Shown here piece by piece: positions 1 through 64,000 of a DNA stretch of 64,000 nt. The DNA comes from a virus (taxonomy: Duplodnaviria > Caudoviricetes), in the IMG/VR virus record IMGVR_UViG_3300013426_000029, positions 1 to 64,000 of that record; one strand, written 5' to 3'. Positions within the stretch are counted from its first letter, which is position 1; the number at the start of each line of letters is the position of its first letter. The position numbers and the translations under genes are program-made. The notes under the pieces are model-generated. The model searched no databases. It was not told the origin of the DNA and saw only the letters and a program-made list of their open reading frames with translations.

Positions 1-72
1 AATCGGTAGACACGAGGGACTTAAAATCCCTTGGTCATTGCGACCGTGTGGGTTCAAGTCCCACTGGTGGTA
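1..72 (+). tRNA. tRNA-Leu(UAA), 5' end cut by window edge
   Basis: Anticodon arm AGGGA-CTTAAAA-TCCCT, long variable arm GGTC-ATTGC-GACC, T arm GTGGG-TTCAAGT-CCCAC. Confidence 0.92.
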
Positions 73-176
73 CAATGTGTAGTAAGGCTATATAATTATT
101 GTGAAATAATTAATTAGTCAATAGTTATTGTGATTGATAAAAAAAAGAGTGCTATTGTGATAATAGTACTCTTTTG

Positions 177-240
177 CTTTTAATGCTACTATCATTAAAA
201 TGATAAGAGTTCCAAGTCTCTATAAAATGCAGAGGAAAAG
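177..240 (+). ncRNA. Twister ribozyme #1 (type P1)
   Basis: CUUU-UAA-UGCU-AC-[P3 UAUCAU/AUGAUA]-AGAG-UUCC-AA-GU-CUCU-AUAAAA-UGCA-GA-GGA-AAAG; P1 CUUU/AAAG, P4 AGAG/CUCU, T1 UCC/GGA, T2 AC/GU; predicted cut U181/A182. Confidence 0.85.
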
Positions 241-276
241 TTAACAAGATTAAATAAAAATAAAAACAAACAAAAA

Positions 277-570
277 ATGAACTCATTAATTAAGGTGAAA
301 GTAGAATTTAAAAACAACGGAAATCCAATAAATGTTCAAGACATTTTTAAGGATTATCCACAACTTAAGTGGTATCTTGATGATTTTATGAAAGTCAAAG
401 ATGGTTTTATTTCAAAAGCCGAAGTTGTGGATAATCAAGTCCGAAACTGTGATATACGTAATGCACTCTTGGATTGGTCAGTTAATGAAAGGGAGTCTGA
501 CAAGCTCTTCAAAATTGACCCAAAAGGGTTTCAATTTACATATACATTCTTATGTTATGTAGATTGTTAA
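277..570 (+). CDS. Hypothetical protein downstream of twister #1
   Basis: 97-aa ORF with A-rich leader. Confidence 0.75.
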   Translation: MNSLIKVKVEFKNNGNPINVQDIFKDYPQLKWYLDDFMKVKDGFISKAEVVDNQVRNCDIRNALLDWSVNERESDKLFKIDPKGFQFTYTFLCYVDC

Positions 571-725
571 ACGCATTTAGGAATAAATAGTTTGTCATAT
601 ATATATAAAATAAAACATATGAAATTATATAATTTTTTAAGTAAACATATCACAACCATATACTGGTTGTGTATATCTTATTGTATAGTATTTATTTTAG
701 TAGAATTTTTACATATTTTATTAAA

Positions 726-914
726 ATGAAGAATTACAAACTATATAGTCCTGGTGATGAAGTAATTATCATTAGGACACATAAAGATGACTTAAATAAA
801 AAAGGAATAATCATAGAAGTAAATTGTTCCTATTGTAAAATCAAAATTGGAGACAAAGTATATAATCATACTTATGCCCAATTTAAAAAAGTTAATAAAA
901 ATGAAAACGATTAA
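726..914 (+). CDS. Small KOW/SH3-like protein
   Basis: Probable start MKNYKLYSPGDEVIII...KKGIIIEV resembles a KOW motif; ATG at 726 overlaps the stop of a short hydrophobic ORF. Confidence 0.55.
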   Translation: MKNYKLYSPGDEVIIIRTHKDDLNKKGIIIEVNCSYCKIKIGDKVYNHTYAQFKKVNKNEND

Positions 915-1064
915 ATATATTGGGCAGCTACTATTAATGGTATTTGGAATTGTAGTAATGACTATTAGTATGTACTTCTTAGGAGCTGCCTTAAACATTA
1001 TATGATAAATATTTTCGTTGCAATAGGTTGTTAATACGGTCTGTGATAGATAGTATTAATATTT

Positions 1065-1138
1065 GTTCTAATAACTCAATTGGATAGAGTAACACTCTTC
1101 TAAAGTGTAAGTTGTGGGTTCGAGTCCCACTTAGAACA
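1065..1138 (+). tRNA. tRNA-Arg(UCU)
   Basis: Acceptor GTTCTAA/TTAGAAC, anticodon arm ACACT-CTTCTAA-AGTGT, T arm GTGGG-TTCGAGT-CCCAC. Confidence 0.93.
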
Positions 1139-1272
1139 CAGATGCGTTAAGGATGTTAATTGTTTTTGTTTTCTAAAATATTATGTTATTGAGAAATAAT
1201 ATATGGTTAGAGAATTTTATAATTTTTCGTGAATTAAAAAGTGTTATATTATTGTGAAATAATATAACACTG

Positions 1273-1336
1273 CTTTTAATGTAGCTTATCTTTATAAGAT
1301 AAAGAGTCCAAAGCCTCTATAAATACAGATGGAAAG
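1273..1336 (+). ncRNA. Twister ribozyme #2 (type P1)
   Basis: CUUU-UAA-UGUA-GC-[P3 UUAUCUU/AAGAUAA]-AGAG-UCCA-AA-GC-CUCU-AUAAA-UACA-GA-UGG-AAAG; P2 UGUA/UACA, T1 CCA/UGG, T2 GC/GC, all compensatory relative to copy #1. Confidence 0.9.
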
Positions 1337-1372
1337 TTAACAAGATTATTAATTAAAAAATAAGAAATCAAG

Positions 1373-1621
1373 ATGAAAAAGTATCCCAGAACATCAACAA
1401 TTGAAATTGATTGCGACCCTTGTACAGGTATGGGTCGTCAACAAAATCATTATGAAGCTATTTGTAAGCTTCTTAATGTGAAGCCAGAGCCAAGAATATC
1501 TGCTTTCTTTGGTTGCTGGGAATGGCCAATAACTTATAAAACAGCAGAAGATGAAGCAAAAGCCAAAGAGTTTTTGACAGACCTATATAACTCTGGGTTA
1601 TGTCGATACGCTTCTTGGTAA
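1373..1621 (+). CDS. Hypothetical protein downstream of twister #2
   Basis: 82-aa ORF with DCDPC motif. Confidence 0.75.
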   Translation: MKKYPRTSTIEIDCDPCTGMGRQQNHYEAICKLLNVKPEPRISAFFGCWEWPITYKTAEDEAKAKEFLTDLYNSGLCRYASW

Positions 1622-1663
1622 AATATATTTAATTAGTTGGATTCCTTTTTTTAATTTAAAATT

Positions 1664-2074
1664 ATGATAAAGATTATATTAGATAATGCATTGGTATTTG
1701 AACTCAAACTTGATTTTGTAATTGTTTCAGATTCAGATATTGAATATGCTACAACTACATTTAAAAATTTAGGTATTAAGTTTGAAACATGTAATGTTCT
1801 ACCACTTAACTTTGCGCCTGTCTCCCGCGATTTCATTGATTGCATTCGCCCAGTAAGAACGATTATTAATTTTCCAGTAGAAATATACCCTGATGATAAT
1901 AAAAAAGATATTCTTATGATTTCTACAAATACTAAATTATATCCATTTATAAAAGTATTTGGAAAAAGTAATAATAGGTTCTTTATAAGAATTGAAGAAG
2001 ATGATTCTTGTAAAATTCTCGGACTAAGAAATAATACAATTAAAATAGAATATACTAAAAATGTTGTTAAATAA
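1664..2074 (+). CDS. Hypothetical protein (paralog of 2422-2811)
   Basis: Shares VSRDFIxxIxP motif with 2422-2811. Confidence 0.7.
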   Translation: MIKIILDNALVFELKLDFVIVSDSDIEYATTTFKNLGIKFETCNVLPLNFAPVSRDFIDCIRPVRTIINFPVEIYPDDNKKDILMISTNTKLYPFIKVFGKSNNRFFIRIEEDDSCKILGLRNNTIKIEYTKNVVK

Positions 2075-2094
2075 TTAAGTTTTTGTTTGTTTTC

Positions 2095-2136
2095 CCAGGA
2101 TTGTCTATTAATTTAGGCAGTCCTGGTTTTATTTTT
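2095..2136 (+). terminator. Intrinsic terminator
   Basis: CCAGGATTGTCTA/TAGGCAGTCCTGG stem followed by a T tract. Confidence 0.75.
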
Positions 2137-2142
2137 AAAATA

Positions 2143-2409
2143 ATGAAACATTATATAGATTTAGAAAAAGTTTTAAAAAACTACACAGAAGTAGTAGTTC
2201 TTTCTTATGGTTATATGCAGTACAATCGCATATTTGGAAATCATTATGAACCATTTGCCCATAAAAGGCAAATTAAGTTTACTATTTCTAACGGAGAATT
2301 TTATAATCCTACATTTGAAATAGATGATTTACACCCAGAAGATTTTTATTTTTATATAGAAGATGGGGTTGTTTATGTAGACGATCCTAATATTTGTTGT
2401 TATGAATAA
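2143..2409 (+). CDS. Hypothetical protein
   Basis: ATG at 2143 (MKHYIDL) lies after the terminator; the ORF-track start overlaps the hairpin. Confidence 0.65.
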   Translation: MKHYIDLEKVLKNYTEVVVLSYGYMQYNRIFGNHYEPFAHKRQIKFTISNGEFYNPTFEIDDLHPEDFYFYIEDGVVYVDDPNICCYE

Positions 2410-2421
2410 AAAATTAGTAAA

Positions 2422-2811
2422 ATGAAAATATTAAAAATAAAATTTGAAAATAAAGTAAGAGTTAATAATACATATATTGAGTTTTTATATGTAAAAGACG
2501 ATGATATTCTTTATTTATTAAAGGAATCATTAAATAAAAACTTTAGATATACTGTAATTAAAAAACTCGAAAATATTGATACAGTATCTAGAGATTTTAT
2601 TAGAGAGATAGCACCTGCAATTGATGAAACTTTTAAAGCTAAAAAGGTATTTAATGCATTATGCAGACCCAATACAATTTTTGAAGTACTATTAAAAGAT
2701 AGCTATAAACCTTGTTTTAATATCGTAGGTTATAGTGAAAATGGTGTTTTAGTTACTGTAAATCAATATTATGAATACAAGTTTGAAAACGATAATTTAG
2801 TTGTTAAATAA
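2422..2811 (+). CDS. Hypothetical protein (paralog of 1664-2074)
   Basis: VSRDFIREIAP motif. Confidence 0.7.
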   Translation: MKILKIKFENKVRVNNTYIEFLYVKDDDILYLLKESLNKNFRYTVIKKLENIDTVSRDFIREIAPAIDETFKAKKVFNALCRPNTIFEVLLKDSYKPCFNIVGYSENGVLVTVNQYYEYKFENDNLVVK

Positions 2812-2816
2812 ATTAT

Positions 2817-2841
2817 GGGCATACTTTTTAGTATGCCCTTT
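2817..2841 (+). terminator. Intrinsic terminator
   Basis: GGGCATACT-TTTT-AGTATGCCC followed by TTT. Confidence 0.65.
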
Positions 2842-2853
2842 ATCTTTTTAATT

Positions 2854-3114
2854 ATGAAATATACTATTGCAAATATACAAGAAAAGGTATTTCTTATTAA
2901 AACAGATAATGATAACTATGAGGATGTGAAGAATGATGTTTTATCTATTATAACGCAAATAGTAGGATATAAACCTATTTCTAAAAAGAGATATGATATG
3001 CTAAATAGGTTTAAACCTTCTTTTGAAAACTATTTAAGAAGATATTATAAACTTAGATATAATAAAGATTTAGAATCTTATATATTTACAATAATTATTC
3101 CTATAGATAAATGA
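2854..3114 (+). CDS. Hypothetical protein
   Basis: ATG at 2854 (MKYTIAN); ATGA overlap with the next ORF. Confidence 0.65.
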   Translation: MKYTIANIQEKVFLIKTDNDNYEDVKNDVLSIITQIVGYKPISKKRYDMLNRFKPSFENYLRRYYKLRYNKDLESYIFTIIIPIDK

Positions 3115-3365
3115 ATTCAATAACAATCAATGAGAAATTCTATATAATATTAGATGAAACTCATAAATATAATGATGAGATAGATAAGGTGGAAAATAAT
3201 TATATTCTTTATAAAGATAATGCATTATTTAATGCTTATAATCAAACTTATGAAGAATGTGAATTTTCAGATAAAGGTCCAATAATACTTTCTATGGAAT
3301 CTAAATTTAATATTTATAAAATAATAGACGGAGTTTTTATTCCCGAAATAGAAAAATATCTTTAA
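3111..3365 (+). CDS. Hypothetical protein
   Basis: Translationally coupled 84-aa ORF. Confidence 0.65.
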   Translation: MNSITINEKFYIILDETHKYNDEIDKVENNYILYKDNALFNAYNQTYEECEFSDKGPIILSMESKFNIYKIIDGVFIPEIEKYL

Positions 3366-3372
3366 TTAAAGA

Positions 3373-3404
3373 TTTGTAAAATTACATTAATTATAATAAA
3401 TTTG
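3373..3404 (+). promoter_or_regulatory. Bacteroidota housekeeping-type promoter
   Basis: TTTG-N20-TAAATTTG matches the -33 TTTG / -7 TAnnTTTG consensus. Confidence 0.75.
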
Positions 3405-3460
3405 TTATTAGAATTAATTTTTTTAATATTTAAAAATAATAAATTAAATTTTTAAAAACT

Positions 3461-3628
3461 ATGAAAAAAATATTTTTTGCGGTAATTGCCGCTAGTTTAT
3501 TTATGGTATCTTGTGGTAATGCTAATAAAGCAAATACGATTAAAGATACTACGATTGTTGATACAGCTAATGTAGATTCTACAATGATTGATTCTCTTGC
3601 TGTAGATTCTGTATCAGCAGTTCACTAA
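3461..3628 (+). CDS. Small lipoprotein (55 aa) with repeated D-S/T motifs
   Basis: MKKIFFAVIAASLFMVS-C lipobox, then DTT, DTA, DST, DSL, DSV; below the ORF-track cutoff. Confidence 0.85.
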   Translation: MKKIFFAVIAASLFMVSCGNANKANTIKDTTIVDTANVDSTMIDSLAVDSVSAVH

Positions 3629-3677
3629 TTTAATATTCTGTTTTCTTAAAAGTTTCAGTAAAAAACTTTTAATTTTA

Positions 3678-3749
3678 GCTCTTGTGGAGTAATGGTTAGC
3701 TCGTCAGATTTTCATTCTGGAAATTTGGGTTCAATTCCCAACAAGAGTA
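3678..3749 (+). tRNA. tRNA-Glu(UUC)
   Basis: Acceptor GCTCTTG/CAAGAGT, anticodon arm TCAGA-TTTTCAT-TCTGG, T arm TTGGG-TTCAATT-CCCAA. Confidence 0.88.
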
Positions 3750-3815
3750 CTTTTTGTTTTCCATTTTGATTGTTATTTTATTATTATTCTTACTAGTAAT
3801 TAGTAGGAATAATAT

Positions 3816-3888
3816 GCGGAAGTAGCTCAGTTGATAGAGCATCAGCCTTCCAAGCTGAGGGTCGCGAGTTTGAGCCTCGTCTTCCGCT
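3816..3888 (+). tRNA. tRNA-Gly(UCC)
   Basis: Acceptor GCGGAAG/CTTCCGC, anticodon arm TCAGC-CTTCCAA-GCTGA; T loop reads TTTGAGC (non-canonical). Confidence 0.92.
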
Positions 3889-3928
3889 CTATAATTATAG
3901 TAAATTTTATTTAAAATTAAATCTTATT

Positions 3929-5143
3929 ATGCCAAATTTTTATAATGTAATTAAAAAACTAGCTGAAAGCGAGGCTGGTAAAAAAGTAGTAAATAAAACT
4001 ATTGGTTATGTTAGTAATCTTTTTACTAAAGGTACTAGTAAAGAAGTAAAATAGCTTGAAAGATTTATTAAGTTAGACAATAAGTTATAGAATTTATCTA
4101 AATTACGTATTTCAGATATTGACCAGAGTACTAAAGAAGGTGTTAAACTTGTAAATAAAATTCGTACCGCACGAAAAGCATTAAGTAATGCTTCTAAAGC
4201 ATAGAATACTTGGATAAAAAATAATACTGATAAAGCTACTAAAGTTTATAAAAGCGGTGCTATGGAATTTTTAAGTAATGACGCTAAAGCAAGCATTGCT
4301 GCAGCAAGAATGTAGGCTTTTAAAGACTCTGGTTTTGGAATAAATAAAAATGAACAATTTATTAAAGGACTAAAAAATCTTAAAGAAAATGGCCTTGATA
4401 AAGTTAAAAATAGTTGGAAATCAAATAAAAAATATCCAGTGATTATATCAACTATAGGTGTTCCTACATTATTATATGCATATAATCACGGTACTGGATG
4501 GACAAATACTCTAATAGATCTTATAGGTAATAATATCCGTAAAAAAGACGGAACTCCTTTATTTACAGTAAATAGAGATTTTGACGATATGTCTAGTAAC
4601 GCTCAGGCTTTTTTATAGGATGCTGTAGATAAAAAAGAAATTCCAGGATATTGGAAAACTCCAGAAGAACGTGAAGCATATTTCCAAAAACATCCAAATG
4701 ATACAATCAAAGCTAATTGGTATGGTAGATTGAATTCTAAGCTTAAAAGCAAAGGAATAACTTAGTCTGATTATAAGAAGTATTATGGAATTAATTATGG
4801 TACTTTAAGTTCTATGCCAGGTTTAACTGGATTTGGAATTAATCTTGTACCTAATAAAAATAGTAAAACTGGCTATGGCAGATTAGATCCTATTACGGCA
4901 GGTCTTTATGAAACTTAGCAATCTATGGGTTCATTTCCTCTTGCTTATGTAAAAGATGGAGTTTTAACAGATGGAGAAGGTTGGGATTTTAGAAAAGAAG
5001 ATAAACATACACCATATACTACAAGTTTACTTCAAAATTTACGTGTCTTTGCTGGTAGACACGGAACAAATGAAGCAGATGAAGTTCCAGCAATAGTAAC
5101 TTCTAATATGAAAATTCCATATAAAAAACGAGATAAAAAGTAA
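3929..5143 (+). CDS. TAG-recoded 404-aa protein, basic N-terminus and central hydrophobic segment (putative virion cargo/effector)
   Basis: One frame from ATG 3929 to TAA 5143 broken only by TAG (4052, 4088, 4202, 4313, 4616, 4763, 4916); includes ORF-track fragment 4925-5143. Confidence 0.88.
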
Positions 5144-5160
5144 TAAAATTAAGATAAATT

Positions 5161-5397
5161 ATGATAATTAATATATTAGCTATACTATTATATTGTATAG
5201 TATTACCTATATATATAGTTTTATATTATATAGTAGCTATCTTTAAAACTGGAAATATTTCATTTCTAAGTTTTACTGAAGATAGTATTTTAAATCCATT
5301 GTTTATTATTGGTATAATAGAATTAATAGTTATTGGTAATTATGTTAGATTTATTGTTTCAAAGTTGTTATGCTATTTGTGTAATAGGTGCAAATAG
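5161..5397 (+). CDS. Small membrane protein
   Basis: Two hydrophobic segments; ends at TAG, and readthrough would end at TGA 5418. Confidence 0.6.
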   Translation: MIINILAILLYCIVLPIYIVLYYIVAIFKTGNISFLSFTEDSILNPLFIIGIIELIVIGNYVRFIVSKLLCYLCNRCK

Positions 5398-5722
5398 TCT
5401 AAACTTATCCTATGGTGAGTTTTGTATTTTAATATTCTGTTATTTACAACCTATAATAATATTATTGTTTGGAATACTAAATATTAAACACTTATTTGGT
5501 AAATTGACTATAATGAGTATGATATTATATTTATGTTTTTATAGTCAATATTCTATTTCAACAGAATCATTTTATAGAATATATAGTGATCTACACCATT
5601 GGGCAATTTATATGGGAATAACATATATAGAAATAAATATATTACTTTATATTTTATTTCCAATAATCATAATTTTAATAAATTATATTCTATTTAAAAT
5701 AAATAAGAAATGTATTATTTGA
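5342..5722 (+). CDS. Multi-pass membrane protein with internal repeat
   Basis: Hydrophobic; LSYGEFCILIF...P and ITYIEINILLY...P are similar segments; ATG at 5342. Confidence 0.7.
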   Translation: MLDLLFQSCYAICVIGANSLNLSYGEFCILIFCYLQPIIILLFGILNIKHLFGKLTIMSMILYLCFYSQYSISTESFYRIYSDLHHWAIYMGITYIEINILLYILFPIIIILINYILFKINKKCII

Positions 5723-5786
5723 TAAATTATTCGGTTTAAGAAAATAGAATAATTTTATTTTATTAACTTTTAAAATTTTATTAAAA

Positions 5787-5888
5787 ATGAAACAAGTAAA
5801 GAAAGCAATTAAATGGTATTTAAAGAATGTAGAAAAATCTTATGTAAGTCTTCCTGAAGGAACTTTTCCTTATTTCTATATTAATTAA
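5787..5888 (+). CDS. 33-aa small protein
   Basis: MKQVKKAIKWYLKNVEKSYVSLPEGTFPYFYIN with AT-rich leader. Confidence 0.55.
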   Translation: MKQVKKAIKWYLKNVEKSYVSLPEGTFPYFYIN

Positions 5889-5923
5889 ATTATTTGTAAC
5901 AGTGTTAGAATATTTATTCTAAC

Positions 5924-5982
5924 TTATTGTAATATTAGCATTGAAGGTTACAACTCCTTATGAGAAAAATAGAGTACAATAA
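5924..5982 (+). ncRNA. Twister ribozyme #3 (type P1, no P3)
   Basis: UUAUUG-UAA-UAUU-AG-CAUUG-AAGG-UUAC-AA-CU-CCUU-AUGAGAAA-AAUA-GA-GUA-CAAUAA; P1 UUAUUG/CAAUAA, P2 UAUU/AAUA, P4 AAGG/CCUU, T1 UAC/GUA, T2 AG/CU; ends 9 nt before ATG 5992. Confidence 0.85.
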
Positions 5983-5991
5983 AAAATAAAT

Positions 5992-7062
5992 ATGAAGATT
6001 CCAACTTCAGAAGTAAATAAATTAATTTCATTATTAAGAAATAGTAAAAGTATACAAAATTTAACAAATAAATTAGAATCATCTTTATCTAAAGCTATAA
6101 ATTTAAATAAAGTTGATTTATTTGGTAAATTCTTTTCACAAAAAGAAAGATTTAATAGAGATAAAACATCTTATGATAAAATAGTTAAATATTTAACTAA
6201 TAATAATTTAGATTTTAATATTGCTACTAAGTTTAAAGATAAATACCCAGTAGTATAGTCTTATATGACTGAAAGGACAACTTTTAGACCAAACTTAGGA
6301 AATGAAGTTCTTGATATGTTTAAAAATAAGGGTAGAACTATTGAGACAACTATACCTAAAAGAAGTAAAGTAAGTCAAGAATACAATGATTTTACTAAAC
6401 AGATTAATGAATTAAGAGGTGGTCTTAAAGATTATTTTTAGTCAAAAGCATATCGTAAAAAATTACGAGATATACTTTTTAATAATCCAAATGATAGAAA
6501 ACAGGAAGGAAAATATATAAATGATATATTAAATACATTAGATGGAGTTGCAATAAATATAGGTCATAGCAATAAAAATCTTGGAGGCACTGCTAGTTTT
6601 GGTACTGTTTATTTAAATAAAAATTCTACTTTTGATGGTAATCCATTTACACTTCTCCATGAACTTATACATGCTTCCAAATAGTATGGAAATTATAACA
6701 TAAAAGGCAAATATCTTGATGCACATAATAGTGATATTGCAAATAGAGTTATGGATTATAATGATATGATTGGAGATAATTTATTTTCATCAGTAAATTT
6801 AAGTGCAGCAACTCCTGCGTAGCAAAAGTATATTAAATATCTAACAAACGGAAGGGAATTATCAGCAAATTTTAATCCAATACAAGCATTAATAGAAAAA
6901 AATGGTTGGTCTCCTAAACAAGCAGTAAGGCTTATTAAAGAAAGAAATTATTTAGGAAACACAACAATTAAAAATTATTATAATGTATTTGGAGAAAAAA
7001 ATGTAGAACGTTTAATATAGAATGTATTAAAAAATGGAGGTAAATTGATTAAAAGAAAATGA
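5992..7062 (+). CDS. TAG-recoded 356-aa zincin-like (HExxH) protein with C-terminal KNGGKLIKRK
   Basis: Frame open to TGA 7062 with TAG at 6256, 6439, 6682, 6820, 7018; TLLHELIHAS motif plus downstream GRELSA. Confidence 0.88.
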
Positions 7063-7208
7063 ATAAATTATTTGATATAACACCAGAACAAGAAAAAATA
7101 ATTGATAAATATTTAAAAGATATAGAATATTATAAAAAAAATAAAGAAAAAATAGATAAAGAAATAAAAGAAAATAAAAATATTAAATTTATCCCTTATT
7201 CACTTTAA
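7059..7208 (+). CDS. 49-aa charged protein coupled to the zincin gene
   Basis: ATGA overlap, no TAG, uses CAA for Gln. Confidence 0.6.
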   Translation: MNKLFDITPEQEKIIDKYLKDIEYYKKNKEKIDKEIKENKNIKFIPYSL

Positions 7209-7212
7209 TATT

Positions 7213-8547
7213 ATGGCAAAAATATGGCATGGTTTTACATACGATCCTAATAAAAAACGCTGGTTTAAAGCTAATGGATAGCAAGTAACATTGGGTAAAC
7301 AGATTAAAACTTCTGATGGTAAATATTATTAGTTAAATTCTGATGGTACTATTACTTATGCAGGAAGTGTTTCAGGAGGTGTAGATTAGAATTTTGTAAA
7401 TACACAAAAAAAGTATAAACGCAACGTAGACACTACATTATTAGATAGGTCTATGCGTTCTGGACTTATTGGTTCAAAACAAGGTTGGAGGTTTGATACA
7501 AACGCTAAAAACATAAAAATTAAAGAAGTAAATGGTAGACGATATTATTTAGCACCTAGTACGTATGATGGTAAAAATACTTGGTTTAGTTTTGATTCTG
7601 GTTTGAATATAGCATAGGATAAAGTCCAATAGTAGAAATTAATTGAACAAAAGAAAAATAAAATTCTTGGTCGTTCTAATGGAACAGGTTGGTGGGATTC
7701 TATAAAAAACGATGGAATAGCAGCTGGAGCAATTAATCATGTTTTAGATAGTGCAAATATTAATAATTAGTGGTTACGAAGTGCTGTTAATTTAGGATCT
7801 CTAGGTTTATATATGCTACCTGGCGTAGGTCAAGCTTTATCTTTAGCTGATGCTGGACTTGCTGCAGCTAGAGGCGATTGGGGTAATGCAGCATTAAATC
7901 TTGCATTTATGGTTCCCGGTGCACGTTTTCTTAAAGGTGCTAAAACTTTAAGTAAAGTTCCTATGCTTAGTAAATTAGGTAAAGTTTTTGGTGGAAGCGG
8001 AGCTACAAGATTAGAAAAAATGCAAATAAATGCAATTAAAAGTAGTCTTCCAAAATATGCAAAAGTTCAGAACAAAACAATTTTATCTCATATAAGAAAT
8101 AAATCATACGCGTGGACTCCAAATGTTACTAAAAAAGTTTTATCTCAAGCAGATCCGTATTTACACACTTCTGTAAAAAATTTATTTGGTTTTACAAAAG
8201 GAAATAATAAATTTTTTAATGCAACATTTAATCCAAATACTACAGGCTTTGGAGGAAATGTTAAACGCGCGTTAGGTTATGCATAGCCTGCAGCACTTAT
8301 AGGTGGTGGTGCATATGGATTTTATAGAGATAAGCAAGCAGAAAATGAGGCTAATACATGGTATCAAAATAATCAAAAACAAGATATTGAAAAGAATCAT
8401 TCTGCATATGTATTAGGTAGAATGTCTGACGATGAGATAAAGAGATTTTTAATTGATTCACATTAGATGACTCAAGAAGATGTATCTAAATTAACACCTT
8501 AGCAAATTAGTGATTTTAAAAATTTAGTATTAAACAACGAAATCTGA
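7213..8547 (+). CDS. TAG-recoded 444-aa protein with pre-toxin-like hydrophobic hairpin
   Basis: ATG 7213 to TGA 8547 with 9 TAG codons (including CAA-TAG-TAG at 7627-7635); LPGVGQALSLADAGLAAARGDWGNAALNLAFMVPG. Confidence 0.88.
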
Positions 8548-8711
8548 TTTTATTATTAAAGTAATTGAATATGAATATGATACTCTATTAAAAGATAAAT
8601 AAATTAGCTAATAAAAATTTTAGATTAGAAAAGTCATATTCTTATTCCAAAATTAAAAGAAACTATATTAAATAGAAAACAACTTATTAGAAATTCAAAT
8701 TAGTTGGTGAT

Positions 8712-8783
8712 TGCCTTATCGTATAATGGTTATTACACGAAATTTTGGATTTTGTAATCTAAGTTCGATTCTTAGTAAGGCAA
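8712..8783 (+). tRNA. tRNA-Gln(UUG)
   Basis: Acceptor TGCCTTA/TAAGGCA, anticodon arm CGAAA-TTTTGGA-TTTTG, T arm CTAAG-TTCGATT-CTTAG. Confidence 0.85.
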
Positions 8784-8799
8784 CAATTTTATTAACTTT

Positions 8800-8832
8800 A
8801 TCCCTGATTAGGTCGCTCTAGTCAGGGATTTT
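8800..8832 (+). terminator. Hairpin/terminator after tRNA-Gln
   Basis: ATCCCTGATTAG/CTAGTCAGGGAT followed by TTT. Confidence 0.6.
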
Positions 8833-53984: not shown

Positions 53985-54032
53985 AATAAGGGGAAGAATG
54001 GCTATAGCAGCTATTCTTCCCCTTATTTTTTT
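53985..54032. terminator. Terminator at the convergence of the early (+) and late (-) arms
   Basis: AATAAGGGGAAGAATGGCT/AGCTATTCTTCCCCTTATT followed by a T tract, between converging genes. Confidence 0.88.
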
Positions 54033-57000
54033 ACTATTGCGATTTAAAATATGCGTTTGCTGTATCTTTTATTGATCTAGTAAGACCTGTATTATTAAGC
54101 AACAAATATTTCCAAGATTTATCTCCAAACAATGATTGCCCTGTCTATTTAACTATCTAAACCGGAGCGGTATAATATGGAGGATTCATATTTTCTCCAA
54201 AGAACTATATTACATTAATTGGACCTTTAAACTAATCAAAAGACCTTGAAGAAGACTTATAAAGTATTTCTGTAAAAAAATTTTTTAACATAGGATTATC
54301 TTTTGCTGTCTTTTTAAATTCTGTATATTTCGGGCCTAATATTAACTAATAAAGTAAACCCAATAATAACGCAGACAATGCATCACTACTTAATTTATAC
54401 ATATTAGCTTTAACCATTGGATTTCCTTTTATATAAGCAAGTCCAGCCTTTAAACCATCTTCTTTACAAAGACTTATAATAGAACCAATAGAAGGAAATA
54501 TACCCTATACAATAATAGGTATATCTTTATATACAGGACTACCAGTATCTTCTGTAGTTATATTACCAACTTCATCAAAAAATAGTTTATTACCTTTTTC
54601 ATCTGTTTCCTATTCAGATGTTAACTATGATACTCCATTTTTCTAAGTTGACATAAAATAATTATTCACAATACCATTCATCCAAGTAGAGAATGAACCA
54701 AATAAAAAACCATATGCTCTATGCTCAGCCATAGCTTTTTTACTTGTATCATAAGAACCATATATATTATCGCCCAATGCTCTTATCGCATTAATTTCAC
54801 GTTTAGAATATGGTTCTGGAAGATTATCGGTCATATTAATTGGCGCATCTAAATGGTCTTCATTATATTTTTTTACTTGAGAAAAATATAAAGCCCTAGC
54901 TTTTAAATATTCTTTAGAACCTTTAGCTCCATATTTAAATGCTTTAAATCTTTCATCCTTAGTCCAATCATATTTTAAATTACCGTTTTGATCTAAACTA
55001 AAAGCTTCCCATGAACCATCATGCATACATTTAGCTACAAATAAAGTCATACGATTTAAAAAGTCTGGACCTCTTAATGTACTATACATAAATGTTTCTC
55101 CATTAAGAATACCACTACGTCCAGTTTTTGCTCTTTCTGCAATACGCCCAATATCTGTATTTGAAATTCTATATTTTAAACAAAGTTTACTTAATAAATT
55201 CTAAGCCATTGGGTTTGCTGTAGAATATTTAAATACATATGCATATGCTTTTCTTACATTTTCTGGTTCTATATCAGTATTTAATTTTATAAACGAGCGC
55301 ATAAAATTTTGTTCAGCACCTTCAAATGTATCACGTAATGAACCAATAATATTACCACCTAAAAGCATGTGTGTTACAATTCTTTTTATTGGAGAAATTA
55401 CCCCGATTATTTTCTATTCTGTTTTAGACATAATAGAAGTATGAAATACATTTACTTTTAGATAATCTTGCATATATTTAATTTCTTTTTCTACTACTGA
55501 TTTATTACCATTATAATTCCCTGTAAGGTATAATTGAAGCATTAAAGCTTTGGAACAAACTAATAATTTATTTAATTGAGTTGTTGAAATATGTTTAGCT
55601 AAGAAATCAATTAATAAATTTTCAACATTGGTTTCAAAAAATGGAGTACCATATTTTTCAATCCAACGTTTTCTTTCTTGTAATGCACTATTATAATTAT
55701 TAGTACTTGTTACCATAGTAGTACTAAATGGATTTACTAAATGCATTCTATAAAAGTTTTCTGAATCTCTTGACATCATTTCTCTTTCTTCTTCAGTAAT
55801 ACCTTCAACAAATTCATCAAATGCAGTAGATGCGTCTCTAATTTTTCTTACAAAGTTTTTCATACCAGTTACTATGCCAGCAGCACTTGAGCGTTGTGTT
55901 CCTTTAGAAGCTCTTTCAAGTGGAACCCATAGATATTCTGGATGCCTTTTTATATACTCTTTGATTTTAGGATCTTCTGGAGATGTAAATATTGAATTTC
56001 CGTTTCTAGAAATACACTATATTTGATAAAGAACTTTCTTTAAAAGAGTTCTTTCTTCAGAATCCAAATCATTACTTTCGTCATATGGATTTTTAAACGA
56101 CATGGCATCAGAATCAGGATCGTATAAATTACGATATACTGATGCCTAATTACCTATAATCATATTCTAAGCAGAAGTATAATTTTTATATTTATAAAAA
56201 TCATCAAACATACCTCTAATCTTAGAATCATAATACTTTAAGAATTCTTCTGATACAGTATCATAAGTAATTAATAAATTATTTACTACTGTTCTAATAT
56301 TTTCATCATCTACTGTTGCAGCAGTAAAGAAATTTAAGTTAATACTACTTAAACTGTTTTTATTTATAGCAGTTTCTCCTCTTAACGTAAGTAATGCATT
56401 TACTGACATTACATATAGTGTAGCCAAGTTTTTATTAAATTTACTACTTCCCTCTAATGCTCTAGCTACTTTTTCTGGGTCTCCAAAATCTGGGCGAATT
56501 GTTTGAATTTTAGTAATAATATCGGTTAATGCTTGAATCTAAGTTACTTTTGTTTTAGCGTCTTTTAAAGTTTCAAAACCATAACGTTCATATTCTTTAG
56601 TTAAACTTAAATTTGCACCATCAGTAACTTTATTATATTCATTGAATATTTCTTCAATTGGGTCTGTAAAAGTAGTATTTAAAAAATTATTATTAATTTT
56701 ATTATCTGGATTTGCTTCATTAACTATAGAAAGAATTTTCTAGAAATAATTCTTATTAAATTCTCCAATATTAAAAGCTCTATACGCACCATTACCACAA
56801 GAACTAACCACTCCAAGTGTTCCTAATATAATATTATCTCCTAATTCTGGCAACATTTCATTAATAAGTTCCATAGTTCTTACAGCTTCAACATTACCAT
56901 AATCAGATTCAAGATCATTATATTCTGTATCTTGCTTATAAAAGCCTAATATGTTATTTCTATTTCTTCTTATATTAGCGTGCTATTTAATATTAAAATT

Positions 57001-58578
57001 AGATAGAGTAATTACATCAATAACTCCGTCTTTACTTTTAAAAATTAAAATTCCAGCATCAATTAAATCATCAAGTAATTTCCAATTGTGATTAATTACT
57101 TCTTTACCATTTACTTCCTCTTTTGTATAATCTAATAAATATTTACTAAATATACTTTCTAACTATTGAGATATAGTAGCCAAACCTGTAACTTTTTCAA
57201 AAGAAAGAAAACCTTTTTCATAAGCATTTTTAACTGCATCTTTTATTTTCTAAACTGTATAACCTTTATTATCATCTAATTTATCAAGATGTTTTGTTAT
57301 AAGTTCTTTAATTTCTTTATTCTTATTTTTATCAGTTTTTTCTTTAATGTCATACTATTTTCCATCAATAATTACTTCATACATATGATCAAGTTCATTG
57401 ACTTTCTTAATTATAATTGGTTCTATACCAGTTGGATCTTCAGATGGGGCATATTTAATCCAAGATTCTGCAGTTTGACCCAATCCATCTTCACGGAGAT
57501 TCATAGTTGGAAATATTAATTTACAATTATCAGTAGCTTTAACTATTACGTTTGAAGAAATAGTAATTGGAGTTGAATTATTTTCTATAAAATAAGATGC
57601 ATTCTTTACATACTTATGCATAGCAAAACCAGAATCTGATTTACGTGTACTATAATTTATAGTACCATGAACTTTAGCTTTAAGTAGATTACCATTCTAT
57701 CCATATTGAAGCTATACTGGAATTACGCTTAACTAAATATTTTTTGTATTAACTCCATTATATTCTAATATAGATTTTAAAAAAGCTAACTAATATTTAA
57801 TACGTTCTTTTTTAACTTGAGGCCATTCATTTGGATTAGAAGCAGTAGTTTTTATAACATATAATCTGATTGTACCATCATCACCAATAGTTATCCAATC
57901 AAAGTGTCCATAAATATCTTCTCCACTTGATTTTATTTTAGCTTTTAAATTTACACCTCGTATAGTCTATTTTTCAGAATTTAATTCACCAGTTTCGGAT
58001 ATAAATGTTTTTCTTAATGCATCCTATACTACTGCTAAATTAGGAATTTTTTCTTCAGAAATTCCTTTATTTTTTAATGCACCCTATACTTTAGCTCCAT
58101 CCTATTCAAATAATATTTTAGAACCAGCAATCATATGAACATATTTTGCATCCTTTTTAATTAATTCATTCTATTGCTTTTCTGTTTTTAAATGCTAATC
58201 TATCTATTCATCATTCCAGCCTTTAGCTGCTAATTCCTATTTTACCTTAGCATCATAATTTCCATCTTCATAAGTTGGAACTAGTAAATGATCATTAATA
58301 TTAAATGCTGAAGAATTAATAAATAACTAAACATTTAAACCACCTTCTGGGGCAGGAGAAGGGTCATTTGGGTCAACGGATTCTACTAATTTAAGATCCT
58401 TAACATTATTCTATTTTATTTTATCTATCTAACTTTTTTGTCTATCTTTACTAAATACAATATCAGTAATATCTGAAGCAAGTTCTTTATCCCTTAAATA
58501 ATTCATTAATTCAGTATAATTACCAAAGTTCTAAAAAACTTCACCATTTAATATAATTGCATAATTACAATAATTCAT
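54031..58578 (-). CDS. TAG-recoded 1515-aa virion/ejection protein with N-terminal PD-(D/E)xK-like domain
   Basis: ORF-track fragments 54643, 55414, 56167 and 57355 share one frame separated by TAG; GHFDWITIGDDG...VIKTT...YQLAF; ends CAA TAG TAA. Confidence 0.85.
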
Positions 58579-58579
58579 A

Positions 58580-60931
58580 TTAACAATCCTCCCTTATTCC
58601 ATTCTTCTAATCTTTATTATATTCACTAATCTATTGATTGATATAATTAGAAATACGTCTAGACTATTGTGTACTACCAAAATCTAAATCTTTTCTTGAC
58701 ATTAATTTAGCTACTTCTTTATTAAATTTATTAAATATGACAGTTAATTTAGAGCCATAAAAACTATTAATATTTTCTATTTTAGTATCAAAAATAGTTT
58801 CTGTAATGTTTTTTAATGTTTTATCATTAGTATCAAATACTTCTTTAGTTTCTAAATTAACATTACCACGTATATAATTACTAAACAAATTAGCAAAGAC
58901 TTCTTCTCTAAGATCCATCTCAGAAATTCCTGGATAAGATTCTTTTATTTTTTTATACATACGTCTTCCTTCATTAGTATTAATTACTAAATTAAGAAGA
59001 TTTTCATAGTTATTACCTAAGTCTGGATTTGATTTAATCATACCAAGAATTAAGTGTACATGTTCGTGTAATAAATCAGAAGGTCTTGCTATTGTACTAT
59101 TAACATATACTTTACCATTATAAATAAAAGCTTTATCTATATTCGGATCAAATAAATTACCTCCTATTTCTTTATTTAAACTTTCAATTTCACTTGCATT
59201 AATTAATTCAACATCAACATTAAACTAAGATTTTAATACATCAGAAATAGTAGTCATCCAAGTAATCATTGGAGTAGATTTTTTTTTAGTCTATTCCTTT
59301 ACACTATCGTCTGGAACTGGAATAACTTGATAAACAATATTTTTATTATATTTATATTTTTCATCAAATTCTCTACTTTCAATATAATACTTTTTAGTTT
59401 TAGCTTTATCTATTTTATTAGCAATAGTATCCATACTTTTACCATTTCTATTTGAAGTACCTAATTCTTCATTCATTTTATAAATAAATAAAGCTACTTT
59501 TTCTGGAGTATTAATCTTCTATAGAATATTTTCTCTATACTTTTTTTGAATACCTACTTCTTTTATATATTCTCTAAATGTCTACATATTAAAGTTTGGA
59601 TTAGTAACAAACTAATCTTCACCACCTCTAATATCTGTTTTTACATCAACAGGAATATCTATAGATTCTATAATTTGTCCAGGTTGATAAGAAGTTTTAC
59701 TGATTATTTTTTCGTTAACAAAACTTTGATATACTTTTTTACCATCTATAATTTCAACAGGTCTATATTTAAATTCTATTGCTGAATTACTGATAATAGG
59801 TTGTGCTTCTATTCTTTCGGCAATAGCATTATGAGCATCTTCTAATGAATCATATCTTGTTCCAAAAGCCGATGAAAGTAATGTACCTCTTGAGATATAA
59901 AATTTATCATTATCTTTATAAACATTATATCCAAGATACTTGCTTACTTTTAATGTATTAATAGTATCCTAAGTAATACCATATTTAGTTTCAATAGGTA
60001 TTGCCTTAGATTTTAATATAATTCCATTTTCTGTTTCTTTTAAATAACCATATCCAAAATCTGGAACTAATAAACGTTCTAAATAATCTTTACTTTTACC
60101 AGATTCTTGCAATTGTCTATAGCCTCTAATGTTTGCATCTTCTAATTCTTTTGGATGTTTTAATTTTAAAGCTTGATATAAATCATTATAAGTAATAAGA
60201 ATTTTAAAATCACCTAATGTTCTTTTTCTATAATTTAATTCTGTAGAAAATGGATCATCAAATTCTTTAATCTAATTCCAATTTCTTAAATTTCTTACAA
60301 ATTTTTCTAATATCTAAATGTTAGATACACCATCAGTAGAAGTGTTTCTATAATTCTTTTTATTCTAAAGATAATCAATAATCAAATCTTCAAAATTATC
60401 AAAGCCTTTATTCTTTCTAATTTTATTTAAAGGTTTATAATATTCAGAAGATTTATCAATATTTAAACCATAATCTCGGATTTCTTTTCTAATTTTTAAA
60501 AATCTTGCTAAACTTTGTAAATCGTATTTATTGTTTTTAAGAATAAATAATTCTTCTCCGTTGTTTTGAACAATTCTCTATTGAATTGTTTTACCTTCTA
60601 ATTTAAGTTCATCTACTAAAAATATATTAACATTTTCTTCTGGAAAATCAATATCACTATATTGTGACATACCTCTAAGTTCAGCTAATGAATAATTTCC
60701 TTGTAAACCATCAAGTCCAACTTTTTCTATATTGGATACTGTAATAGTTCTTTTTTTAATTTCTGATTTTTTTTCTTTTAATAAAGGAATTAATTGTTTG
60801 TAAACAAGGTCTTTATTATTTACTAAAGCTGAATATAAATCCGCTTCTTCAATATTGGTAGAGGGCGCTGAACTCTCATAATTCAGCACCACTTTCTTAC
60901 CATTAATTAATATTATAATGTTACAATCCAT
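58580..60931 (-). CDS. TAG-recoded 783-aa protein with zincin-like domain
   Basis: Fragments 60578, 59291 and 58664 are in frame across TAGs; DLLHEHVHL plus EEVFA. Confidence 0.85.
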
Positions 60932-63900
60932 TACTTACATATTTTATTTATTTGTGTAATAGTTCCCTCTTTTAAGAACTACTTAAAATAAGATATGATT
61001 TTTTCAATATCTTCTTCTGAAGCATTTGTTTCTAAACTTTGTTTTATAGTATTAATTATATTTTCAAAGTAATCAGAATACTTGCTTCCTAATACAAAAT
61101 ATCTTCTTATATTATTTACTCTTTCAAATAAATCATTTTCAGATTCACCTGGTTCTTGTATAATAAATGATTCATCATTCTTACCTTTCATTACAATAAC
61201 AGGAATAGAATTAGATTCCAGTTTAATAATACAAGGATCTTGATTACCAGAAGTACTTCGTACAATTCTTGCTGAATCTATTAAAACGTCTTGATAATTA
61301 AAGTAAAGAGGAATTTGATTTGATTCTAATTTTACATCTTTAGTTCCTTCTAATATTGGCACTCCATACCAATCTAAATTAGCTTCATAATCAAAGAAAT
61401 TACGAAGCATAGGGATATCTCTTAAATAAGAATTAAATAAACTAGTAATTCTATTCTTGCCATATTGGTTTCTATTTATAATAATATTATAAAGAACAAA
61501 AGCATCAGCTAATGTCATATTGTCAGTTATATAAATCTTATTTAAATCTCCAATTCCTTTTTTATAATTCTAGAATTTTTTCTAAGATTCAGAACTATCT
61601 TCAATTGTCTACATATTTAAAGATACTTTATAGAATGGAATGTCTTTTTCTATTGCTTTAATTAAAGCAGCAATAAATGGATTCTATGATAACCCTTTTA
61701 CTTGTTCAGTAATAATATTTCCATCTTTATCTACTTTAGTAACTTTACCCTATTTTAATTCGGGAATAATCTTATTTTCAAATATATATTTGAAAGAACC
61801 AATATTTGCTTTAGAATTTAAATTTAGTAAACCATCTTTTTCAAATGTATTTACTCTACCATTAATATCCAAATATTTAGTTCCTTTAGAAACAGGGAAA
61901 GAAATATTTTTACTTAAGATAAAATTATTGCAAATAATTTTATCAATAGATGTTAACACCCTAGCTTGGTATTGTTCTGGAATATAACTAAACTACTAAG
62001 ACATTTCTGAATATACTACATCGAATGCTTTTGATTTAAATGAAATATTATCATCTACTTCAAGTACGGTAGAAAATAATTTTCTAATTGCATCAAACTA
62101 AGGTATCTTAGTAAATGCATCAAATACATTTACACACTTCTTTACTAGGTCGTATTCTCTAGCAATTTTTTCTCTGTAGTCTTCATCTATAGTCCAACGT
62201 TTAACATCTAAATCTTTAATATTATTAATAGCTTCTAATTCTGAAGTTGTTTTACTTGAATCTTTTAAAGCATTCTTTTTAGCAGTAGCTAATATATTCT
62301 TCAACTGTATTACTTTTGCTTGTAAGTCAACTTTATTAGTAGGTATTCCCTAATTAAATCCATAAAGTCTACCAAGATTACTAAATTCATTAGCTGCTTG
62401 TAACACATTTAAGAATTCATTACAATCTGCTTGTAATTCTGCTTTATCCATAGTAGTTAAACCTAATCTTTCTTTTAATGCCTATGTTTGAAAATTATAC
62501 AATGAAATAGGTTTTCCATCTTCATCATATAATTTAGTTTCACTTCTTGCTTGTTTAACTGCATTTTCTAATGTAATTTGTTCCTAACCAGAATATATAT
62601 TTTCTTCTGTTAATTCGTAAACGAATCTAGCAACAGGAGATGTCATAAATGATACAATATCGTTAATATTATATCCCATTGTAATTAAGAATAAATACAT
62701 TTTAGCAAGCTTAGATCCACAATTAATCTAACCTAATATAAGCTCTTTTGCATTCAATTTTATTATTCTCATACTTTCATATAAGTTTAGACTATATCTT
62801 AATTCAATATATTTTGAATTCTCAGCACTTCGGATTTTTAAATCCTATTTTATTAAAATAGTCGTTGCACCATTGTATGGCTCAGAGATTACCCCAACCT
62901 TAAATCTTATTACTATAGTAAGGTAATTACTCTTACAAGTAATTTAAGTTTTTAACAGGGCTTTTCCTGAATTCACTGAGTATTTTATCCAACTGACTCT
63001 GCTTTATATATTTATTTTGGATCAGTTGCTGCAGAAAGCACCTAACTTATCATTAAGTCAACCTATAGGTTTCCTGTACTTCGTTTAGAGAAACTTTCAG
63101 CTATTTTTGGATCTACTCCTTCAAAATTCATCTAAGGTAATCCATTAAGTGTTAATGTTTTTGGATTATTCTTTGCTCTACCAGCAATTCTCTAAGTAGT
63201 AAAAGCAAATGTAGCATGTTCTATATTCTAAGTTCTTATAGCATCGTTTAAATAGTAATGCCAAAGGAATGATGCCTTTTCTGCATTAGCTGCAATACCA
63301 ATCACATTCTTACCAACCATGTTAATATACTACATTGTAAATTTAGTAATTGGATCTAATAAAGTAAGTTTAGAATTTTCTTCAGCTCCATTACCATATT
63401 TATTAGAAGCATTTCTAATTACATCCATATCAATTGGAGAATATGCAGTAATCATATTTCTTAAACTTTGAATAGTATTCTAAATATGAGAAGAAATAAA
63501 ATTCTTACTTATTTCCTATGAAAGTTTTGCAGGAATTTCTGTCTATTCGTGAGTTATTAAATTCTATAATACTTTATTTCCATACTTATTATGATATGAA
63601 ACATTTATATTATTTTTACCACCATGCTCATAAGGTTTAACTTTATACAATTTGTTTAAAAGATTAGCATAAAGTTCTATTCTTTTTGCTTTTAATTTAT
63701 TATTTTCTGGATCTTTCTTTATTAGATTATCGACCTTTTCTATATTATTTACGTCAATATTAATATCTACAATATTATTTAATGATTCTAATAAAGTTGG
63801 ATCAGTATTACTGCTAGTTAAACTAGCTCTAAGTTTAGCTTCATTACTAATAAAATTATATACTAAATGCTTTGGTTGAGGTAATTTTTCAGAAGCTTCT

Positions 63901-64000
63901 AATGTTTCAATAGAAGAAATATCAAATAAATTACTCCAACCTATATAACGCCCATTATCATCAAAACTTAAACCCATGATATATGCTTTATCAATATCCG
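60931..64000 (-). CDS. Virion RNA polymerase, catalytic (beta'-like) C-terminal part; TAG-recoded, partial; exons >63998-63021 and 62754-60931
   Basis: DIDKAY at the window edge (tail of the DxDID motif); GKNVIGIAAN; SAATD|NAKEL restored by splicing. Confidence 0.85.
62755..63020 (-). mobile_element. Group I intron 4 (266 nt, no endonuclease) in the RNAP gene
   Basis: IGS GUCAGUUG pairs with exon CAACUGAU; P7 GACUA/UAGUC; AAGAUAUAGUC; ends AAAUUG. Confidence 0.92.

Follow-up and report, generated by a model that had tools for sequence, protein, structure and literature searches.

Three twister ribozymes between hairpins and start codons in the tRNA region of a TAG-recoded phage

The DNA considered here, referred to as the window, comprises the first 64 kb (64,000 bases) of a 91,133-base virus record in the IMG/VR database (IMGVR_UViG_3300013426_000029, Caudoviricetes; about 60% complete), and near its start three RNA motifs of the self-cleaving twister class lie among transfer RNA (tRNA) genes and small open reading frames (ORFs). 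An initial annotation had assigned the full twister layout to segments 177-240, 1273-1336 and 5924-5982, and both coordinates and layout agree with those obtained in the present analysis. A relative of the window, the complete genome G001 (152,026 bases), is colinear with it over the region of interest and serves as the main point of comparison. The elements most directly concerned are the following, with lengths in nucleotides (nt), base pairs (bp) or amino acids (aa), and with RF03160 standing for the twister-P1 family of Rfam.

1..72, + strand: tRNA-Leu (UAA), 5' part lost at the record start (Rfam tRNA, 34.5 bits, 5'-truncated; a complete tRNA-Leu(taa) at the equivalent place in G001)
143..175, + strand: hairpin of 15 bp with a GUGA-type loop, then GCUUUUAAUG, ending 1 nt before P1 of twister 1; listed as terminator-like
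177..240, + strand: twister copy 1, type P1 with P3 (RF03160, 49.7 bits, E 4.9e-9, model positions 1-68; strict descriptor match)
240..252 and 1336..1348, + strand: 13-nt leader motif GTTAACAAGATTA, with exact matches nowhere else in the window
277..570, + strand: ORF of 97 aa led by twister 1 (no family match; G001 ortholog 65% identical)
1065..1139, + strand: tRNA-Arg (UCU), from tRNA searches
1240..1271, + strand: hairpin of 14 bp, loop within UUGUGAAA, directly before P1 of twister 2
1273..1336, + strand: twister copy 2, type P1 with P3 (RF03160, 58.3 bits, E 1.7e-11, model positions 1-68; matched by both descriptors)
1373..1621, + strand: ORF of 82 aa led by twister 2 (no family match; 100% identical in G001)
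5904..5923, + strand: hairpin of 8 bp directly before P1 of twister 3 (from the fold of 5895-5991)
5924..5982, + strand: twister copy 3, without P3 (relaxed descriptor; compensatory P2 pairs in G001; metagenome relatives matched by RF03160)
5992..7062, + strand: ORF of 356 aa led by twister 3, with five in-frame TAG codons and an HExxH motif (weak PHROG metallo-protease match, E 6.8e-4)

All three copies follow the order P1-UAA-P2-T2-(P3)-P4, a loop of U-T1-AA-T2', an A-rich junction, P2', GA, T1' and P1', and retain the U/AA at the cut, the U before T1, the AA after it, the AAA of the junction and the GA. In twisters at large, at least ten nucleotides of loops L1 and L4 are conserved at above 97% (PMC5408937; this and the other papers are cited here from the accessible part of their text). 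The pseudoknot bases of the window copies are non-consensus but compensated, and five pseudoknot pairs form in each copy with differing sequences, namely T1 UCC/GGA and T2 AC/GU in copy 1, T1 CCA/UGG and T2 GC/GC in copy 2, and T1 UAC/GUA and T2 AG/CU in copy 3. The earlier proposal that both pseudoknots covary is therefore borne out in every copy, and the same covariation is found among relatives. Scissile bonds derived from the Rfam alignment together with the sequence are predicted at U181/A182, U1277/A1278 and U5930/A5931. Copies 1 and 2 have in common a cassette extending from the hairpin to approximately 30 nt past the ribozyme; the folds of 140-276 (-27 kcal/mol, z -4.1) and 1236-1372 (-25.1 kcal/mol, z -3.9) are both more stable than all of their 200 shuffles.

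In a 7-kb search run at an E-value threshold, copies 1 and 2 align with the full length of RF03160 at the scores listed above, and in a search of the whole record their E-values become 1.5e-11 and 5.1e-14, respectively; among 14 well-known genomes searched as a control, two matched at E up to 1 and none above the cut-off. A strict descriptor finds copies 1 and 2 and has no match in 20 shuffles. Both copies are 100% identical in G001, whereas the protein encoded after twister 1 has only 65% identity there, a pattern indicative of selection. The twister-P1 search suggested by the initial annotation accordingly succeeded in part, recovering copies 1 and 2 (E 4.9e-9 and 1.7e-11), whereas all copies lie below the 67.2-bit gathering score and copy 3 lacks a significant match. 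A default Rfam scan of the region returns tRNAs only, the twisters emerging at the E-value threshold. The reason for these sub-gathering scores is that pseudoknots go unscored in a covariance model, and it is at the pseudoknot bases that copies 1 and 2 differ from the consensus, both partners having changed: the consensus has T1 CCC and T2 GC, while the window copies carry UCC, CCA or UAC at T1, and AC or AG at T2 in two of them. No other ribozyme family appears in 7001-64000 at E up to 0.05, and the descriptors find no twister beyond the three in the 91-kb record or in G001.

Copy 3 is more divergent and has to be connected to the family in other ways. Its six-bp P1 is followed by UAA, P2 (UAUU/AAUA), T2 and P4 (AAGG/CCUU, extended by CAU/AUG across a two-nt UG bulge), and the loop reads U-UAC-AA-CU, with a junction of AGAAA preceding P2', GA and the GUA of T1'. 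A relaxed descriptor (P1 of at least 4 bp, UAA, P2 with 4/4 and T2 with 2/2 pairs, P4 of at least 3 bp, loop U-T1-AA-T2', GA-T1') matches copies 2 and 3, and nothing else, in the record and in G001, placing copy 3 at exactly 5924-5982; the background is one match in total when both strands of 100 mononucleotide-shuffled versions of the 91-kb record are scanned. In G001 the P2 of copy 3 changes from UAUU/AAUA to UGCU/AGCA, two compensatory pairs, and one junction base and one P1' base are altered, the remaining core being unchanged. A scan of metagenomes with the P4 and loop pattern of copy 3, leaving T1 and T2' free, yielded 75 stretches, eight of which (L181, L183, L188, L197, L200, L224, L227 and L228), judged by eye, present the full twister layout, the other 67 looking like chance matches. 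L200 and L227 are identical to G001 across the element, and RF03160 matches over its full model in each of the six relatives tested out of these eight, five of them at E between 3.6e-7 and 6.5e-4 and L200, which carries the G001 copy 3 sequence, at 28.7 bits and E 0.0037. All nine sequences of the P3-less set pair fully at T1 (3/3) and T2 (2/2), and do so with five T1 types (UAC/GUA, CCG/CGG, CAC/GUG, CGC/GCG and CCA/UGG) and three T2 types (AG/CU, GC/GC and AC/GU). When the exact T1 and T2 of copy 3 were required and P2 left free, 43 viral-contig stretches were found, the twister layout being present in G001 only. About 20% of twisters dispense with P3 and have a short junction in its place (PMC5408937). 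By its sequence copy 3 is thus a twister of a P3-less subgroup, although its activity is less assured than theirs is for copies 1 and 2, and this subgroup connects to the twister family only through intermediates. Overall, the proposed twister identity holds for all three elements, the divergent third included, on the basis of the Rfam alignment, the descriptors, the pairs in G001 and the metagenome relatives.

Two of the P3-less relatives carry a second such twister on the same strand (L181 at 63-114 and 383-437; L224 at 150-205 and 386-441), the members of a pair lying 180-270 nt apart, so that short RNAs or small genes may be excised at both ends.

A degenerate pattern built from the P4 loop retrieved 107 viral-contig stretches, 94 of which the descriptor parses as complete twisters; the 13 left unparsed are mostly inside coding sequence, together with L089, L103 and L072. 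Once duplicates are removed, 62 sequences remain, of which 36 have a short P3 and the other 26 carry an insert of 72-100 nt in P3. Twenty hand-chosen loci of the 107 were searched with Rfam, and all 18 short-P3 loci among them match RF03160 at 45.7-60.3 bits, every one below the gathering cut-off, while the two long-P3 loci tested have no match at E up to 0.001. When parsing omitted the pseudoknot criterion, 80 of the 107 loci (50 unique sequences) were recovered, with T1 fully paired (3/3) in 49 of the 50 and T2 (2/2) in all 50, as compared to 42% paired when T1 and T1' were drawn from different sequences. A covariation alignment of 36 sequences (34 from other contigs and window copies 1 and 2, the identical G001 copies being excluded) has 97.4% of its cells paired vs. 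72.4% in shuffles, a percentage biased upward by the preselection of its rows for T1 and T2 pairing, with P4 fixed by the search pattern and hence uninformative. Seventeen of its 24 pairs vary at both positions, giving a covariation score of 0.625 vs. 0.158 in shuffles. The long-P3 sequences form a large viral-contig group of their own (L004, L025, L099 and approximately 45 further loci), P1-type twisters with the 72-100-nt insert, and in this group a strong hairpin lies 3' of the ribozyme.

The placement of the three ribozymes is as regular as their fold. In agreement with the initial annotation, which had a hairpin right before each ribozyme and a start codon 9-36 nt after it, the hairpins occupy 143-175, 1240-1271 and 5904-5923, and the start codons at 277, 1373 and 5992 lie 36, 36 and 9 nt past P1'. 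Hairpin 143-175 looks, from its sequence, like an intrinsic terminator and is listed as terminator-like, and the hairpins before copies 2 and 3 are not listed owing to their few G-C pairs. The 13-nt motif GTTAACAAGATTA opening the leaders of copies 1 and 2 also follows both corresponding twisters in G001 (L013, L014); as a genome-wide signal it was rejected, being exact only after twisters 1 and 2 with near matches at chance level. The hairpins found between tRNA and twister (100-175 and 1181-1271) repeatedly bear GUGA or GAGA loops, of the GNRA type, with the motif UAUUGUGA, and similar loops occur in L008 and L016, two further lineages having the order tRNA, hairpin, twister. A sigma-70 scan returned 56 promoter sites against 69 in shuffles, fewer than chance, neither assigning nor excluding a promoter, and the Bacteroidota-type motif TAnnTTTG was not seen by eye between tRNA and twister, an outcome that neither supports nor excludes one.

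Much of this arrangement is encountered in other phages. In 26 of the 36 unique short-P3 phage twisters a hairpin ends no more than 6 nt from P1 and the 50-nt fold reaches -8 kcal/mol or below, the mean upstream 50-nt fold being -11.2 vs. -7.5 for 207 control 50-mers, and an ATG ORF of at least 40 codons starts within 60 nt downstream in 20 of the 36, vs. 20% for 720 positions drawn at random from these loci. That the ribozymes are placed as leaders just upstream of start codons, as had been put forward, is thus borne out in the window and recurs elsewhere. The emphasis laid on tRNAs fares less well. Copy 3 is preceded by a 33-codon ORF and not by a tRNA, and only six of the 36 short-P3 twisters are preceded, at a distance of up to about 370 nt, by a tRNA on the same strand, these being the two G001 copies, three from one lineage and one at L008 (Rfam confirms the tRNAs in L016 and L008). 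The tRNA-hairpin-twister order recurs in few lineages, and most short-P3 twisters are not beside tRNAs.

We consider it probable that the three type-P1 twisters, two with P3 and one without, each form the joint of a unit composed of hairpin, twister, short A-rich leader and start codon, and each cut read-through transcripts. Since the hairpin abuts P1 and leaves no room for a promoter, the twisters would be transcribed by read-through from upstream, and every transcribed twister would then cut itself at the U/A step of its UAA loop (181/182, 1277/1278, 5930/5931). The upstream product would end in the hairpin, 5-7 further nt and a 2',3'-cyclic phosphate, a 3' end resembling that of a terminated transcript, and for copies 1 and 2 it would consist of a tRNA extended at its 3' side by 109 and 138 nt, respectively. 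The downstream message would have its 5'-OH end enclosed within the folded twister, which stops 9-36 nt short of the start codon. In this manner upstream RNAs (tRNA precursors and early messages) and downstream messages may gain independent fates. The twister fold, its conservation and covariation, and the placement of the elements are established by the sequence comparisons, whereas self-cutting inside cells, transcription through the hairpins and possible consequences for RNA stability or translation are what we infer. That the new ends would alter stability or translation is a supposition drawn from general knowledge of RNA decay. The earlier scheme, in which a transcript is divided into an upstream RNA and a 5'-OH mRNA, fits the anatomy and the layout recurrent in phages, while its link to tRNAs is not general; the region may be transcribed as one tRNA/mRNA polycistron.

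Several observations weigh against this interpretation. None of the three window copies reaches the RF03160 gathering score of 67.2 bits, and the only Rfam match to window copy 3 is a partial and insignificant one to Twister-P5 (11.8 bits, E 2). The relaxed descriptor was composed after copy 3 had been seen, and the junction base before P2' is G in copy 3 and A in G001, as opposed to U in the Rfam consensus and in copies 1 and 2. In copy 1 only three of the four P2 pairs form, the remaining one being a U-U mismatch, and changes in P2 may disturb the twister active site (PMC5408937). The comparative sets were gathered with patterns taken from the window copies and include related lineages, so that the counts of 26/36 and 20/36 are not independent, and the distance to a downstream ORF is a crude measure accepting any ATG ORF with TAG read through. 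Finally, since hairpin 143-175 is terminator-like, little twister RNA would be made if most transcription stops there.

Other explanations can be set against the cutting of read-through transcripts into two independent RNAs. The twisters may mainly serve the upstream RNA and form part of the upstream module, as makers of 3' ends that give read-through transcripts the hairpin and short tail typical of terminated ones, any downstream effect being incidental. The predicted cut of copy 1 lies 6 nt past the terminator-like hairpin, inside its U-rich tail, and the conservation of flanking sequence has a matching polarity: nucleotide similarity between window and G001 at copy 3 (5759-5983) stops one base past the ribozyme, with different genes downstream, and past copy 1 (240-277, compared with L014) it decays 13 nt after the ribozyme, ahead of a diverged gene. 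In 76 pairs of loci with a twister identity of 90% or more, conservation is confined to the upstream flank in 16 (one flank at 80% or above, the other below 60%) and to the downstream flank in none, although 21 keep both, 38 are intermediate and one keeps neither, and the pairs stem mostly from two lineages and are not independent. The start codons are also close and clustered (20/36 within 60 nt) and the 13-nt leader is conserved with the ribozyme, tying the twister to the downstream gene as well. We regard a mainly upstream role as rather unlikely, and the two explanations are not mutually exclusive. Upstream-only conservation of flanks is seen in two other twister lineages too. A more speculative extension of the joint we favour is that the hairpin-twister-leader unit is portable, a self-processing gene joint at junctions where phages swap downstream gene cargo, with copy 3 releasing the TAG-recoded block up to tRNA-Gln as a separate message. 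We hold this as a tentative and rather unlikely idea; in such a joint the tail of the terminator-like hairpin would double as the 5' strand of P1, and terminated and read-through transcripts would acquire nearly the same 3' end.

Alternatively, cleavage could be a translation switch, with P1 or the uncut leader masking a ribosome entry region that cutting would free. Some P3-less relatives (L224 and L197, for example) do have a purine-rich, Shine-Dalgarno-like run overlapping or adjoining the 3' strand of P1, and self-cleavage in the 5' untranslated region of a chrysovirus is reported to be essential for translation initiation (PMC13725137). The window, however, has no Shine-Dalgarno-like sequence in or beside P1', its leaders are A/U-rich, the start codons of copies 1 and 2 are 36 nt away from P1', and the published chrysovirus case is eukaryotic, all of which makes a switch improbable here. 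We think it equally improbable that copy 3 resembles a twister by chance or has decayed to an inactive form, leaving only two active twisters. Such a view could draw on the lack of a significant Rfam match for the window sequence, on the non-consensus identity of all five of its pseudoknot pairs and of one junction base, and on the occurrence of the exact variant in a single other viral contig, G001. Yet the descriptor gives one match per 100 shuffled genomes, two P2 pairs are compensated in G001, a metagenome copy identical to that of G001 matches RF03160 over its full length, further relatives sharing its P4 form a bridge to the family, and copy 3 occupies the same hairpin, twister and start codon context as copies 1 and 2.

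The closest known system is the type-P1 twister itself (RF03160; Roth et al. 2014 via PMC5408937 and PMC6765202), with which the window elements share their order, a four-pair P2 and, for copies 1 and 2, alignment to the full-length model; they differ from the type-P1 consensus in T1 and T2 bases whose partners have changed as well, and score below the gathering threshold, as do all 18 of the short-P3 phage twisters examined. For copy 3 a further parallel is provided by P3-less twisters such as that of rice (O. sativa; PMC5408937), known here by description only, which likewise have a short junction in place of P3. Copy 3 and its metagenome relatives depart from it in having a longer P4 with a two-nt bulge and an A-rich junction starting with G or A. 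The same review, PMC5408937, names an optional P0 stem of twisters.

A scheme distinct from that of theta ribozymes had also been proposed, and this distinction stands. Theta ribozymes are minimal ribozymes resembling that of hepatitis delta virus (HDV), whose cleavage site abuts a phage tRNA and which are proposed to make its 3' end (PMC10879173). The window elements resemble them as small self-cleaving RNAs in the tRNA regions of stop-codon-recoded gut phages, but have the twister fold in place of the HDV-like double pseudoknot, and one copy has no tRNA at all. Their predicted cuts lie 109 nt beyond the 3' end of tRNA-Leu (copy 1) and 138 nt beyond that of tRNA-Arg (copy 2), so that cleavage cannot make the tRNA 3' end. 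No HDV-like family is among the Rfam matches of the window, although whether Rfam 15 includes a theta model was not checked, and a word search of the accessible text of PMC10879173 found neither 'twister' nor 'hammerhead'.

Bacterial hammerheads and twisters near phage genes have been described, with a suggested role in processing polycistronic mRNA (PMC6765202), and the functions of twisters are considered still speculative and largely unknown (PMC5408937, PMC6765202). The window copies are similarly intergenic among phage genes, with the same proposed splitting of transcript fates; unlike the bacterial cases they belong to a free phage genome, stand beside tRNA genes and form a fixed hairpin-twister-leader unit duplicated within the genome. 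Leader ribozymes of eukaryotic RNA viruses, twister variants among them, are likewise located just upstream of a viral ORF, but there cleavage supports translation initiation, whereas the window comes from a DNA phage with a bacterial host. Ribozymes in DNA phages are treated as already described by PMC13725137, and a literature search with subscription journals mostly outside its coverage found no paper devoted to twisters in phage genomes or beside phage tRNAs. The window twisters are new representatives of an established ribozyme class, found where that class was already suspected to occur, and as a phage feature they are real but fairly ordinary.

Even so, the locus offers a compact test case: within 6 kb of a phage reading TAG as sense, the same class of ribozyme occurs three times, always in the same unit of hairpin, ribozyme and start codon, and twice behind a tRNA gene. 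Of wider bearing is that AT-rich phage twisters collectively fall short of the Rfam cut-off, as their pseudoknots depart from the consensus in a compensated way, and this blind spot means that routine annotation under-counts phage twisters. The recurrent unit of hairpin, twister and start codon is a second useful side result. If the layout works as proposed, it would be a natural counterpart of the ribozyme insulators of synthetic biology.

As to the genome at large, the phage DNA of the window has a G+C content of 26.6%, and many of its long ORFs (3929-8547, 54031-64000, and throughout G001) require TAG to be read as sense, one frame of 1515 codons containing 37 in-frame TAG. A replication module (helicases, primase, ligase, DNA polymerase and anaerobic ribonucleotide reductase) is encoded. 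This would fit a large phage of an anaerobe, possibly crAss-like. The GenBank phage collection holds no close relatives, its matches being tRNA-sized only. Apart from the weak PHROG metallo-protease match of the 356-aa ORF, which has no Pfam match, neither Pfam nor PHROG families were found in the three ORFs led by twisters, and no relatives of the 356-aa ORF were confirmed in viral contigs.

Five tRNA genes, all on the + strand, are present in 1-8784, for Leu(UAA), Arg(UCU), Glu(UUC), Gly(UCC) and Gln(UUG), those not listed above being the following.

3678..3889, + strand: tRNA-Glu (UUC) and tRNA-Gly (UCC), from tRNA searches
8712..8784, + strand: tRNA-Gln (UUG), at the end of the TAG-containing gene block headed by twister 3

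Twister 3 heads TAG-containing genes up to tRNA-Gln in G001 as it does in the window, the genes themselves being different. The sole tRNA-Gln, directly after this block, has the anticodon UUG. Neither the 91-kb record nor the complete G001 yielded a credible suppressor tRNA, and suppressor calls made by ARAGORN at low threshold were set aside as they contain introns above 200 nt and look spurious. An ORF of 136 aa (1664-2074) and a block of ORFs of 404, 85 and 129 aa (3929-5758) have no counterpart in G001, and these segments are insertions or replacements in an otherwise colinear tRNA region. Terminator-like hairpins also stand among the small ORFs of this region (651-671, 2095-2126, 2817-2838 and 8800-8829), where 12 terminator-like sites are found in 9 kb vs. 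1.5 expected from shuffles.

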